Below, piece after piece: positions 6,953 to 30,813 of a DNA stretch of 32,204 bases (its first letter is position 1; each line of letters starts with the position of its first letter). The stretch is from a virus (Duplodnaviria; Caudoviricetes). Made by a program: the position numbers and the translations under genes. The notes below the pieces were generated by a model. That model ran no database searches and had not been told where the DNA came from. It saw only the letters and a list, made by a program, of their open reading frames with translations. Location of the stretch: positions 1 through 32,204 of the IMG/VR virus record IMGVR_UViG_3300042465_004912; one strand, given 5' to 3'.

Positions 6953-9097
6953 ATGGCACTGGATACTGAACTACGAGCGACAACCTACGCTGGCAACGGC
7001 TCGACTGCTTTAGCGTACCCGATCCTCTTCCCGTATCTCGATTCCGCAGACATCAAGGTGCAAGTGCAGGCGGCTGGCGCAGCAACGCCAACGGTGCTGA
7101 CCGAGTCTGCTTACACCGTGCATGATGAAGAGGATGACGGCGCACCATACGTCACGACGACTGCCGCCTATCCTTCGACCACTACCGTCCAGATTTTCCG
7201 GTTCATGGATTACCTTCAGCCGGTTGTCCTGCCAGAGGGCGGCAAGCTTTCGAGTGTCATCATTGAACAGGCACTGGATCGTGTGACCATGCTGGCAATG
7301 CAGGGCGGCGACGGTGGGTATACACTGCCTTCTGCCGGATCGCGGGACAGCGTAGTGTTTGCTGATGCCGGGGCAAGAGCAACAACGGTTGCCGCCCGTG
7401 TGGGACAACTAGGCGTGCAGACCGACAACGGCAGCGTCTGGCGGGCACTCTCAACCTTTGCTGGAGACTGGCAGGAGATCATGCCAGCGATCCGATCCAA
7501 CGAGCGTAACGTCCACACGCAGTCACAGTTGATTGCCGCCTTTACCGATACTGCCGCTTTGACCATCTACGTCCGCAAGGACATCGACCTGAGCGTGTCA
7601 ATGACGATGGGGGCCAATAAGACCTTGGTGATGGGTGACTACAGGTTCACCCAAGTTGGGGCAAGTACCCTTATTTTGATGGGAACGGTTGTGGCGGATC
7701 GTCGTCAAATCTTCTCTGGGTTTACCTCCGGCCAAATTACTGGAACCTTTGGGGGCGAGGTGTACCCGGAATGGTGGGGATTAGTTGATGGATACCACGA
7801 TATCGCCATCAATATGGCGATCAGGGCGGGGCGGCTGGCAACATCCAATTTCGGCATCAAGGTATCTCTCGGTCCACGACAGTATGATGTTTCGGCACCG
7901 ATTGACATGGCTTCGCAAAGCTGTTTTCTGGAAGGGCACGGAAGCGCCACAACCATCTTGATGAGCACAGCCAACTGGGACACCGCACAGTGGCTCAAGG
8001 CTGAACAGTGGGGTCCGGTCGATGATGTTTTGAACCACGCGGCAATGGTCTGGATCGGAGGGGAGCCTTTACCAAGCCCCCGCTTTGCGAGCACCTACAG
8101 GAACCAAGTGAGAGGCATTGGTATTAATTGTTATGCTGCCTCATTGGCTTACGCCGGGGTAAATCCCGTGACTAGGATCGGCACTGGAGCCAAGCGCGTT
8201 TCGGGCATCTCCAGTAAAGCCGGGGTGGAGGAGTGCTCCATCATTGATGATGTAGTGGTCAGTTACGCCAGCGGGTTTGGAATTGGGTTCTGCCGTCACC
8301 GGCAGGTGGGGCAGGCGTTCACCGCCGCCACCGTAAACGGATTGACTATTTCCAATTGTTGGATTCTGGGTCCGACGTTCCGTGACTCGGTCCCCATCAA
8401 CTTTAGCCAATGGACTAATAACTGCAAACTCTCGGTCACCACGGTGGACATCGGAGTGGCTAAGTCAATCAGTGCCGACTACGGGGTTGCGGTGGCAGGT
8501 GACCTGTCGGGCACTGGGGCAATCATCTACCCACTTCCCGCGTGGATTGTGACCTACCCTCTCGCTGCGATTGTGGCTCAAGGATTTGTCAGCATCGAGG
8601 ACGTCCACATCGAGGGTGCCACCATCGGGGTCCATGTGCTGGAAAGCTCTGGTATTAATAACGTCTACGTCCGAAACGTGAAGGCTTACGGCATGATGGA
8701 CCGGGCACGCAGCGCAGTCTATGAACTGGATGGCAAAAGCGGAGTTCCACCCACCAACACCGCCAATTATGCATACAGTTGTGCCGTAATGATTTCCGGC
8801 CAAGGGGAGGCAGCGGCCAACGGGCGCTTTAATTGGAAAGACAGGGTCTCGCTGCATAACATTAGTGTACTTGGGCTTTGTGCTTACATTGTACGAGATT
8901 CGATGTATGAGGTCGAGAGAACGTCATACGGCATGGGCGATGCCTACTCCCGCACTGCCGGAGTAGGTGGCATTGTGTCCTACATGCGTGGCAATGCATG
9001 GGTGGACAGTGCTGCGCCAGGTAGCACCGTCTGGAACTCCCCGGCAAGCGCACCACAAAAGGCAGAGCGGACCTACTTCATCGGACCTATTCACTAA
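6953..9097 (+). CDS. Tail fibre/tailspike: T7 gp17-like N-terminal anchor plus probable beta-helix (pectate-lyase-like) depolymerase region
   Basis: N-terminus TYAGNGSTALAYPILFPYLDSADIKV...EQALDRVTMLAMQ. VYPEWWG...IAINMAI..FLEGHGSATTI is a typical tailspike beta-helix entry, followed by V/I/G/N-rich strands. Confidence 0.8.
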   Translation: MALDTELRATTYAGNGSTALAYPILFPYLDSADIKVQVQAAGAATPTVLTESAYTVHDEEDDGAPYVTTTAAYPSTTTVQIFRFMDYLQPVVLPEGGKLSSVIIEQALDRVTMLAMQGGDGGYTLPSAGSRDSVVFADAGARATTVAARVGQLGVQTDNGSVWRALSTFAGDWQEIMPAIRSNERNVHTQSQLIAAFTDTAALTIYVRKDIDLSVSMTMGANKTLVMGDYRFTQVGASTLILMGTVVADRRQIFSGFTSGQITGTFGGEVYPEWWGLVDGYHDIAINMAIRAGRLATSNFGIKVSLGPRQYDVSAPIDMASQSCFLEGHGSATTILMSTANWDTAQWLKAEQWGPVDDVLNHAAMVWIGGEPLPSPRFASTYRNQVRGIGINCYAASLAYAGVNPVTRIGTGAKRVSGISSKAGVEECSIIDDVVVSYASGFGIGFCRHRQVGQAFTAATVNGLTISNCWILGPTFRDSVPINFSQWTNNCKLSVTTVDIGVAKSISADYGVAVAGDLSGTGAIIYPLPAWIVTYPLAAIVAQGFVSIEDVHIEGATIGVHVLESSGINNVYVRNVKAYGMMDRARSAVYELDGKSGVPPTNTANYAYSCAVMISGQGEAAANGRFNWKDRVSLHNISVLGLCAYIVRDSMYEVERTSYGMGDAYSRTAGVGGIVSYMRGNAWVDSAAPGSTVWNSPASAPQKAERTYFIGPIH

Positions 9098-20166: not shown

Positions 20167-20194
20167 TTGACGGCATTGGATTGGCGTGTACTCT
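20167..20194 (+). promoter_or_regulatory. Putative strong early promoter TTGACG-N16-TACTCT with AT-rich UP-like element
   Basis: Hexamers at 20167-20172 and 20189-20194, preceded by an AT-rich tract at about 20134-20162. Heads a run of small genes. Confidence 0.65.
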
Positions 20195-20232
20195 GGTGAC
20201 GGGAATTAACCCAGCCAAACAAGCCAAACCAA

Positions 20233-20571
20233 ATGACCAACCAAGCAGTTCCAGAAGTCTTTGTCCTCATCCGCTTTGTCAACGGTGACCAACTCACCCG
20301 CCGGTTCCACGCCTGTGAAAAAGCATGGCAGTGGGAAATCAAGACCCGGCACGAATACGCCAACCGCCGCAACAAGGAGACCCGAGTCGAAGTGCTGCTT
20401 AGCCTGTATGCAGGCTGCACCACCACCGGCAAGTCTTACGGCGGCATCCTCCACGGTTACGACCGATACGAGAACAACCTGCCCAACTACATCCGGCAGG
20501 AAGAGCAACGCCAAGCCAAGGCGCACTCCGAAGCCGAGATCAACGACATCCTTAATAAGTTCGCCGCCTAA
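20233..20571 (+). CDS. Early hypothetical protein
   Basis: First ORF after the promoter, with an A/C-rich leader. Confidence 0.6.
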   Translation: MTNQAVPEVFVLIRFVNGDQLTRRFHACEKAWQWEIKTRHEYANRRNKETRVEVLLSLYAGCTTTGKSYGGILHGYDRYENNLPNYIRQEEQRQAKAHSEAEINDILNKFAA

Positions 20572-20579
20572 TTCACCCC

Positions 20580-20598
20580 GCTGGGTTCCATCCCCAGC
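20580..20598 (+). repeat. T-arm-like hairpin 1 (GCTGGG-TTCCATC-CCCAGC)
   Basis: 6-bp stem with 7-nt TTCNATC loop, intergenic. Confidence 0.75.
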
Positions 20599-20620
20599 AA
20601 CTTCCAACCAATCCAATCCA

Positions 20621-20911
20621 ATGCAAACACGCCGTAAATCCCCCACTCTGACCACCGAAGAACGCGCAATTCTTGCCCTCCGTGCCCAAGGTGCCGCCCT
20701 TTGGCGCACCCGCAAAGGCACCAACCTTTCCGATCGCCATGTGCAGGGTAGCTGGGGCGACTACAGCTACTGCGCCCTCGACACTCCCGAGGGACTGACT
20801 GCCGAGCAGTACCTCAAAGCACTTAACGCCGCACGCCAACGCAGCTATCCCTCCTTCAAATTGGAAGACGGCAAAGTCATTGAAGAAAACTACTACTCAA
20901 TTGGCGACTAA
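20621..20911 (+). CDS. Early hypothetical protein
   Basis: MQTRRKSPTL... after an A/C-rich leader; start reassigned from 20261. Confidence 0.6.
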   Translation: MQTRRKSPTLTTEERAILALRAQGAALWRTRKGTNLSDRHVQGSWGDYSYCALDTPEGLTAEQYLKALNAARQRSYPSFKLEDGKVIEENYYSIGD

Positions 20912-20919
20912 ACATTTTA

Positions 20920-20938
20920 GCCGGGTTCAATCCCCGGC
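20920..20938 (+). repeat. T-arm-like hairpin 2 (GCCGGG-TTCAATC-CCCGGC, followed by ACCA)
   Basis: 6-bp stem with 7-nt TTCNATC loop, intergenic. Confidence 0.75.
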
Positions 20939-20962
20939 ACCAATCCCAACCAACCAACTACC

Positions 20963-21238
20963 ATGAGCAATCCAATCACCACCCACTCCCGCCACAACCA
21001 CTCCGTCACCGAGTACTTCTCCCGCAAAGACGACGACGGCGACGTCATTTACAGCTTCTCCAAAGATTTCACAGATACTTGGGACCAAGCAACGGAAGAC
21101 GTCCATGAACGCAAGAACAGCGACCCATGGCTCCGCATTGAGGAACTGGAAGCCAAGCTGGAGGCTTTGCAGGAAGAACTCAACGACTACCACTGGGCGC
21201 AGGACGTTCGCTCCAATCGCGTTGCTGAGTATTGCTAA
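20963..21238 (+). CDS. Early acidic hypothetical protein
   Basis: Asp/Glu-rich with a C-terminal coiled coil. Confidence 0.6.
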   Translation: MSNPITTHSRHNHSVTEYFSRKDDDGDVIYSFSKDFTDTWDQATEDVHERKNSDPWLRIEELEAKLEALQEELNDYHWAQDVRSNRVAEYC

Positions 21239-21245
21239 ACATCCC

Positions 21246-21266
21246 GCCGGGGTTCGATCCCCCGGC
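21246..21266 (+). repeat. T-arm-like hairpin 3 (GCCGGGG-TTCGATC-CCCCGGC)
   Basis: 7-bp stem with 7-nt TTCNATC loop, intergenic. Confidence 0.75.
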
Positions 21267-21289: not shown

Positions 21290-21637
21290 ATGACCACCAT
21301 CCCTAAACTCATTCGCTATTCTTCCCCCGCCGGTCCCTACTGGTATCACCCCGATCACCCCGATTGCCAAGATGGCAACGTCGTCCACGAGGAGCCAGAG
21401 GGCTGGACTCTGCCGGAAGCCACTGGCATCGAAGCTGAGGTGATCCGGGACATTGCTGACAGGCAGCGTCTGGGCATCAAGAAGTACGGATGCACCGTCG
21501 CCGATAGCCTCGACAACATGTGCCAGCATGCTTACGAGGAAGCCCTCGACCTTGCCATCTACCTCAAGGCCGAACTCAGGCACCGGGTTAACGATCCGAA
21601 CTACAAGCACTACACCCATCACCAACCAAAACCATGA
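21290..21637 (+). CDS. Phage protein with possible all-alpha NTP-pyrophosphatase-like domain
   Basis: RQRLGIKKYG.T....QHAYEEALDLAIYL motif. Confidence 0.55.
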   Translation: MTTIPKLIRYSSPAGPYWYHPDHPDCQDGNVVHEEPEGWTLPEATGIEAEVIRDIADRQRLGIKKYGCTVADSLDNMCQHAYEEALDLAIYLKAELRHRVNDPNYKHYTHHQPKP

Positions 21638-21873
21638 ACAGATACGACCCGATACAATTCTTTGACCAAGGAGGCTCCACGCTGGGGCAAATGGAACGGC
21701 GCGACGATGGAGACTGGGTGCCGTTTGAGGATGCCGAGAAACTCCGCGACGCGCTGGAGCAGATTGCAAAAATCTATGAAATCCCAGAGCGGTCAACCAT
21801 GCATGCGCTTGCTGCTAAAGCTTATGATATGCGCTGCATTGCCAGAAACGCACTACTTTTGGAGCAACCATGA
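21634..21873 (+). CDS. Hypothetical protein
   Basis: DGDWVPFED..LRDALEQIA..IARNAL, ATGA-coupled. Confidence 0.55.
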   Translation: MNRYDPIQFFDQGGSTLGQMERRDDGDWVPFEDAEKLRDALEQIAKIYEIPERSTMHALAAKAYDMRCIARNALLLEQP

Positions 21874-29122: not shown

Positions 29123-29160
29123 AGGGCCGCTCTGGAAAGTTCCGGGGCGGCTCTTTTTCT
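29123..29160 (+). terminator. Rho-independent terminator
   Basis: AGGGCCGCTCTGGA-AAGT-TCCGGGGCGGCTCT followed by TTTTCT. Confidence 0.8.
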
Positions 29161-30776: not shown

Positions 30777-30813
30777 GGCCCCCGGCCTGGACTTGTGCCG
30801 GGCCGGGGGTTTT
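30777..30813 (+). terminator. Rho-independent terminator after the capsid genes
   Basis: GGCCCCCGGCCTGG...CCGGGCCGGGGGTT followed by TT. Confidence 0.75.

Follow-up and report, generated by a model that had tools for sequence, protein, structure and literature searches.

The window, by which we mean the entire stretch of 32,204 nucleotides that was analyzed, is a 32-kb virus record encoding a T7-like portal, a capsid protein, a terminase, RecT-like and YqaJ recombination proteins, a replication initiator and a DnaC-like loader. The phage is podovirus-like; no close cultured phage was found, and its best terminase matches are less than 40% identical. Homology and context indicate that the host likely belongs to the Verrucomicrobiales. 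Among 62 matches to the capsid protein, the sole organism-named one is from Prosthecobacter (41% identity), and the hairpin pattern described below has 10 genome matches, two of them with the full layout; these two lie in an Akkermansiaceae assembly and a Verrucomicrobia assembly, in both of which phage-like neighbors surround the hairpins. Following the replication genes, an AT-rich tract leads to a promoter-like site and then to a run of small genes without function by family, arranged as follows:

20167..20194, + strand: promoter-like site recognized by pattern (TTGACG, 16 nt, TACTCT), with an AT-rich tract upstream
20201..20212, + strand: weak 3-bp hairpin GGG-AATTAA-CCC close to the presumed 5' end of the transcript, outside the family described below
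20233..20571, + strand: gene 1, 112 aa, no family, C-terminal Ala-Ala
20580..20598, + strand: copy 1 of the T-loop hairpin, 6-bp stem, loop UUCCAUC, starting 8 nt past TAA, 41 bits
20599..20620, + strand: leader after copy 1, A/C-rich, G-free, unstructured, without a Shine-Dalgarno sequence
20621..20911, + strand: gene 2, 96 aa counted from ATG, no family
20920..20938, + strand: copy 2 of the T-loop hairpin, 6-bp stem, loop UUCAAUC, starting 8 nt past TAA, 40 bits
20939..20962, + strand: A/C-rich leader after copy 2
20963..21238, + strand: gene 3, 91 aa, no family
21246..21266, + strand: copy 3 of the T-loop hairpin, 7-bp stem, loop UUCGAUC, starting 7 nt past TAA, 49 bits
21267..21289, + strand: A/C-rich leader after copy 3
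21290..21637, + strand: gene 4, 115 aa, matching PHROG families of unknown function

Genes 1 to 3 have zero matches in PHROG or Pfam, and gene 4 matches only unknown-function PHROGs, which leaves the suggested host-takeover role of this gene array a conjecture. From its pattern, which recurs in the relatives L018, L020 and L021, we infer that 20167..20194 is a strong early promoter; a consensus promoter scanner gave no flag at these positions. The promoter spacer at 20173-20184 is the exact 12-nt reverse complement of 20613-20624, spanning the gene 2 leader and start, which may be chance. Farther along the window, two long GC-rich terminator-like hairpins lie at 29123-29154, before the capsid gene, and at 30777-30811, after the gene next to it.

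Each intergenic gap (49-51 nt) behind genes 1, 2 and 3 carries one hairpin, whose end lies 22, 24 and 23 nt from the next ATG for copies 1, 2 and 3, respectively. A preliminary description of this DNA had listed the three hairpins with their stop and ATG spacing, a T-A/C-G swap in the stem, ACCA behind copy 2 and a lack of U-tracts, and all of this was confirmed (U-tracts follow 0 of the 3 stems). The small hairpin at 20201-20212 that it also listed is present, but it folds like shuffled sequence (z -0.06) and has no family-model match. The three copies are the sole TTCNANN hairpins with at least 5 Watson-Crick pairs on either strand of the window, and 300 dinucleotide shuffles of the window gave a mean of 0.07 hairpins of at least 6 bp, with a maximum of 1. 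The hairpins dominate the fold of their spacers, which have z-scores of -4.1, -4.1 and -2.6 for copies 1 to 3 and energies of -10.7 to -15.1 kcal/mol. In a search with the family model, to whose training set the three copies belonged, they were the only strong window matches (40-49 bits), the next best scoring 13 bits. None of the three spacers holds a promoter-like site.

These hairpins belong to a real family of RNA motif with a 5-9-bp GC-rich stem and a UUCNANC loop, and exact-pattern scans placed the element in many further viral contigs. Two complementary searches were chosen against circularity, one with the loop fixed and the stem free, the other with the stem fixed and the loop free; many of the sequences are related, so that all counts given here are of sequences and overstate independent events. 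With the loop and only 2 bp fixed, a pattern estimated to match about 320 stored stretches, 81 of 104 unique viral matches have 5-9-bp stems of varied sequence that keep their pairing. In the converse search, which fixed one stem type and left the loop free, YYCNANC caps 73 of 105 unique hairpins and 73 of the 77 with seven-base loops. Within those 73 loops, U54 occurs in 72 and U55 in 69, both together in 68, C55 in 4 and C54 in 1; C56, A58 and C60 are present in all 73, and position 57 accepts any base (a pyrimidine in 14). Positions 54, 56, 58 and 60 are thus constrained within the family while 57, 59 and the stem vary freely, which argues for selection on the bases that are held. Of 15 bystander hairpins in family loci, unmatched by the search patterns, 11 carry the T-loop. 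In alignment A1, double changes occur in 6 of 8 stem pairs (0 of 500 shuffles did so), a statistic drawn from 72 of 111 non-redundant rows that had been pre-selected for the stem; because of this pre-selection, the claim of covariation rests on the loop-fixed search instead. Irregular stem pairs, counted with no rows dropped (n=21), comprise 12 G-U and 3 A-C (p 0.035), an excess that favors function as RNA on this strand. Covariation, loop conservation and G-U bias together support the suggestion of a loop-conserved cis element acting at the RNA level and tied to mRNA stability or processing.

The motif is apparently uncatalogued, having no counterpart in Rfam or in the literature searched, where no description of it was found. 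The Rfam search that had been proposed returned no match at the window hairpins at E up to 5 and no relevant match in the window overall, none at 12 genome loci, and none at 3 loci under relaxed E. The available portions of three motif-discovery papers (PMC5737381, PMC10690425 and 10.64898/2026.09.15.751765) contain no T-loop or Verrucomicrobia passage in their text. Five core strings are absent from 6 supplementary files of PMC10690425, whose files 1, 2 and 4 lay outside the comparison and may hold the motif.

For counts of anatomy and position, 189 unique hairpins were reduced to 170 by removing 3 within tRNA or tmRNA genes and 16 without G-poor flanks. The hairpin is 17-25 nt long, and its stem has 5-9 bp in every one of the 170 copies. 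The T-loop-like cap, and the ACCA after copy 2, had suggested a tRNA-like punctuation mark for cleavage by RNase P or RNase Z, a reading to which we now give next to no weight: the stem is not the 12-bp acceptor-plus-T stack, and NCCA directly follows it in just 15 of 152 copies without a U-tract. Nor is there a match to a tRNA or to Rfam, ARAGORN reporting 0 tRNAs in the window and in 21 loci. Identity with a tRNA or t-element was likewise rejected, given the lack of an approximately 12-bp acceptor-T stack, of a cloverleaf and of an Rfam match, and the rarity of CCA, which follows the stem in 1 of 3 window copies. A general T-arm pattern picked up mostly tRNAs in viral contigs (106 of 120 loci under a relaxed ARAGORN setting).

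The layout in which the hairpin sits is broader than the motif itself. A second stem type, with 103 hairpins, gave the T-loop in 12 of 19 seven-base loops; each of the 12 has C60, and in leader-type contexts no loop but this one occurred. In metagenomes, the same stem type gave 6 of 116 hairpins of the T-loop type, plus 5 leader-type hairpins with different loops. A third stem type carried the T-loop in only 3 of 114, many of the rest having GNRA, UUCG or other loops in the same order of stop, hairpin and leader. This search, having given mostly other loops, shows that the stop-hairpin-leader layout is common among phages and that the T-loop cap marks one group. AT-rich phages (L217, L232, L236, L240, L246, L268, L278 and others) combine this layout and the GC stem with loops of GNRA, UUCG or CGCAAU type. 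These observations bear on a reading in which the hairpin is a generic spacer, its cap being a well-folding piece that arose from one tRNA fragment and was spread by recombination with no protein reader. Such a reading would accommodate the other loops in the same layout, the near parity of 5 other loops to 6 T-loops in the leader-type metagenome matches, the existence of C55 variants, the similar T-arm of tRNA-Val in a genome of the likely host order, and the T-loop that caps a different repeated hairpin in Verrucomicrobiales chromosomes. We nevertheless consider it quite unlikely, since the selection evident at positions 54, 56, 58 and 60 runs against it and since the loop is uncommon as a terminator cap (5 matches in 301 genomes of the phylum versus 3 for a control). 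The same count ruled out a role of the loop as a phylum-wide terminator cap.

The position of the element is defined from the upstream side. Among copies found with stop-free patterns, 67 of 72 follow a stop codon at a median of 8 nt, 44 of them within 7-10 nt, and over all copies the median stop-to-stem distance is 8 nt alike for 6-, 7- and 8-bp stems; this constancy implies that it is the base of the stem, and not the loop, that is tied to the stop. From stem to ATG the distance is loose, with a spread of 9-43 nt; an ATG lies within 45 nt of 137 of the 152 non-U-tract copies, and a Shine-Dalgarno-like word occurs in 1 of these 137 leaders. Family leaders are 84% A+C in the subset counted. 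A stop-codon readthrough fusion was considered and rejected, as gap lengths modulo 3 are distributed 51/46/34 in 131 gaps (p 0.17). A U-tract follows the stem in 18 of 170 copies, most of them from one lineage, so that the preliminary verdict that the hairpins are not terminators holds for the window and not for the whole family. In L345, L358, L408, L427, L163 and L177, the U-tract abuts a TTGAC-type site in a compact terminator-plus-promoter junction, and copies of this kind tie the element to 3' ends.

The upstream genes are small and likely early: 76 of 88 have no PHROG match, 11 match unknown families, and 1 is a major head gene. This last copy (L357:1498-1538, - strand) indicates that the element is not confined to early genes. 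Several upstream proteins, including that of gene 1, end in Ala or Ala-Ala; with stop-free patterns the enrichment is weak (16 of 60 versus 36 of 257, p 0.03), part of the Ala-end excess having come from CTAA inside the search patterns. Such ends resemble protease degradation tags. Promoter-like sites lie upstream on the same strand of 41 of 113 copies, versus 13 on the opposite strand. With a stricter spacer, 38 copies have such a site; the hairpin comes after the first gene in 22 of them and after an earlier copy in 13, and in none of the 38 does it form a clear primary 5' end. In L142, L168, L195 and L349, the ATG of the first gene stands about 6 nt after a -10-like box, which suggests leaderless early transcripts.

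A hairpin between two genes could instead serve the downstream one. In a processing scheme, RNase E/G would cut the spacer behind the stop and the hairpin would cap the 5' end of the downstream cistron, giving single-gene messages. The nearby ATG of most non-U-tract copies fits this scheme, as does the presence of RNase E/G above cut-off in 5 of 5 likely host genomes (RNase Y is found in 1 of 5), and the absence of the hairpin from primary 5' ends would fit if only processed ends need protection. The copies that are U-tract terminators, however, could not cap a downstream message, and the spacing is anchored to the stop and not to the start. RNase E sites are AU-rich, unlike the C/A-rich stop-to-stem spacers with their 16% U. 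We regard a processing mark of this kind as unlikely, albeit with some chance of being correct.

Copies per genome range from one to five. In 40 hand-picked records of at least 20 kb (20-97 kb), the family model has 69 matches; 3 of these records encode a T7-like portal and 9 an integrase-like gene, showing that unrelated phage types share the element. Such a spread suggests either a host reader or no reader. It also weakens the suggestion that the hairpins are boxB-like sites for a phage protein, and the wider idea of transcription control, in which a boxB- or put-like pause or antitermination hairpin, bound at its loop by a host or phage factor, would decide whether the early operon is read through. 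The position of the hairpin directly behind the first gene after a promoter-like site can be likened to that of the lambda nut sites, which are found close to early promoters; terminator forms also retain the loop. Set against this are the unrelated phage types, upstream genes that share no common family, and the fact that no boxA-like companion motif was seen in alignment A1, and we judge transcription control improbable.

Comparison of 5 close relatives shows how the array changes. L018 lacks gene 2 and has a single hairpin consisting of the copy 1 5' arm with the copy 2 loop and 3' arm, a hybrid that is what exchange between copies would leave; in place of gene 1 it has an 80-aa gene that is mostly different. 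The sole difference in L017 is at the end of gene 3, and gene 4 is shortened in L020. In L019, a change of two bases in copy 3 (7952-7972) disrupts the inner stem and the closure of the loop, either a natural loss or an assembly error, making copy 3 broken in 1 of 5 relatives. Another gene indel, at 21634-21873, is bounded by leaders without a hairpin. By these alignments, recombination at the repeat happens, but gene indels do not need the repeat, and the gene loss at a hairpin (1 of 5 relatives) looks secondary. A cassette boundary for gene swaps had been among the original suggestions, and the hybrid in L018 together with the RecT-like and YqaJ proteins of the phage is in keeping with it. 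That early-gene gain and loss should be the main service of the repeat is nonetheless very improbable. A single copy is present in 22 of 40 records (7 of 10 where the record is near-complete), the divergence of stem sequences from phage to phage lowers homology, and the G-U bias points to RNA; the part of the suggestion that stands is recombination as a side effect.

If the loop has a reader in the host, the pseudouridine synthase TruB is a plausible one, as had been proposed. TruB was found above cut-off in 3 of 3 Verrucomicrobial genomes (the host itself being deduced), and GUUCNANNC stands in a 7-nt loop on a paired stem in 3 of 3 window copies. According to the sections available, E. coli TruB modifies GUUCNANNC stem-loops in vitro, those of 6 bp fastest, with weak binding (KD >1 uM; PMC13492117), and TRUB1, its human homologue, favors 6 paired positions together with G at -3 and a pyrimidine at +5 (PMC5340967). 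The hairpin has in common with the mRNA substrates of TruB, Pus4 and TRUB1 described there GUUCNANNC, the 7-nt loop, G at -3, a pyrimidine at +5 and at least 6 paired positions, and its predicted fold fits the published optimum of the TruB family. It differs in that those substrates, in the same excerpts, are scattered eukaryotic mRNA sites or test RNAs, whereas the phage motif is repeated, positioned and a predicted substrate. Copies with C55 (found in 4 of the 73 loops and twice in L208) cannot be pseudouridylated, which argues against a strict TruB requirement. The loop also differs from host tRNAs. Among the 30 best of 52 loci in a genome from the likely host order there are 20 distinct tRNAs, of which 20 have a purine at 57 and 17 have U60; the phage loop, with any base at 57 and an invariant C60, may accordingly be shaped by something besides tRNA mimicry. 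The other enzyme suggested for this role, TrmA, finds no backing: TrmA, TrmFO and RNase J occur above cut-off in 0 of 5 likely host genomes, most of them incomplete, and TrmA and TrmFO have weak partial matches only.

We tentatively favor a reading, drawn from sequence and position, in which the hairpin would be a 3'-flank element, serving as a stabilizing barrier to 3'-to-5' decay and as a translation insulator, with a loop that is likely modified by TruB; this may well apply. Starting from the observed hairpin, stem covariation, loop conservation, spacing and position, the functional steps that we infer would run as follows. The hairpin would work as RNA, and its stem base would lie immediately outside a ribosome that terminates at the stop, so that it could fold whenever the gene is read. 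After cuts farther downstream, it would halt exonucleases and leave longer-lived promoter-proximal messages, and at the same time it would block re-initiation, the next gene beginning anew on its own A/C-rich leader. An added U-tract would turn it into an intrinsic terminator. Finally, the T-loop cap would recruit host TruB, which would pseudouridylate the loop and likely stiffen or shield the hairpin. This recruitment is the weakest step of the mechanism and is optional in some copies; a barrier role by itself needs no conserved loop, which counts against the 3'-flank reading. A stronger form, which is possible if rather doubtful, would have Verrucomicrobia phages equip the 3' flanks of their first early genes with optimal TruB substrates, so that binding and pseudouridylation by the host enzyme would set mRNA lifetime and the hairpin would be an epitranscriptomic cis element under selection in phages. 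As a review puts it in the part available, pseudouridylated E. coli mRNAs have shorter half-lives in a truB mutant (PMC13602947), and host pseudouridylation of phage RNA is described, in the text available, for RluA on MS2 (10.64898/2026.10.15.759028). In the literature searched, host modification of viral RNA appears only for MS2 and plant viruses; if the dependence on TruB were true, DNA phages would rely for early gene expression on a host factor that modifies tRNA. The motif predicts a pseudouridine at loop position 2 and RNA ends adjoining the stem, and natural variants with C55, a U-tract or a broken stem offer ready controls. Even without a role for TruB, it serves as a marker of early operons and of likely Verrucomicrobial hosts among uncultured phages.

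The nearest structural parallel, on the sources as available, is the T-arm mimic of brome mosaic virus, an intergenic enhancer carrying m5U54 and pseudouridine 55 (PMC13191261, PMC2602774). Both are stand-alone T-psi-C arm mimics in viral intercistronic regions, and in brome mosaic virus loop mimicry is needed for function. That virus, however, is a plant RNA virus with a 150-base replication enhancer that acts with a viral protein, whereas the present element is a 17-25-nt mRNA hairpin tied to stop codons in bacterial DNA phages. In position, the hairpin resembles a ribosome termination structure (RTS), which is a fold just past the stop codon that insulates translation (PMC7518266). There, to go by the passages available, a stable fold stands at the edge of the terminating ribosome where the gap exceeds 25 nt, as is also the case here; an RTS is defined by folding energy without a sequence motif, unlike the phage loop, which is conserved base by base. 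The PeSLs of T4-type phages (PMC2839356), in the excerpt available, are poly-G/poly-C intergenic stem-loops among small early ORFans, and both systems show gene loss through exchange between copies (here in L018) and forms combining a terminator with a promoter. The window copies differ in having no promoter, U-tract or Shine-Dalgarno sequence, in their fixed T-loop and in the family's occurring mostly once per genome. Identity with PeSL was rejected because the window copies do not form a unit of promoter, terminator stem-loop and Shine-Dalgarno sequence. Intercistronic stem-loops that stabilize messages include the REP element in malEFG and the pufBA hairpin. Like these, the phage hairpin sits behind an upstream cistron and is not a terminator; its stem is shorter, its T-loop cap is conserved, and it is phage-specific. 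On the strength of these comparisons, we suggest that the motif is a variant that joins the intergenic stabilizer and T-arm-mimic elements.

Hairpins of related form also appear in the chromosomes of the likely host order. A model search of 151 genomes of that order, with only 43 candidates per genome scored, gave 32 with a match at E 0.05, mostly weak, and at this scope a missing match carries little weight. In Verrucomicrobiales chromosomes (L591:1490-1560 on the - strand, L598 and L601), a T-loop-type loop caps the hairpin that ends a repeated element; this element has 8 model matches in G052 and no Rfam match, and its ends look like what we take to be a small group II intron with domain VI. 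TruB-type hairpins of 7-8 bp are common to the genome pairs L585/L592 and L586/L587, where they are apparently coding and may be host mRNA substrates.
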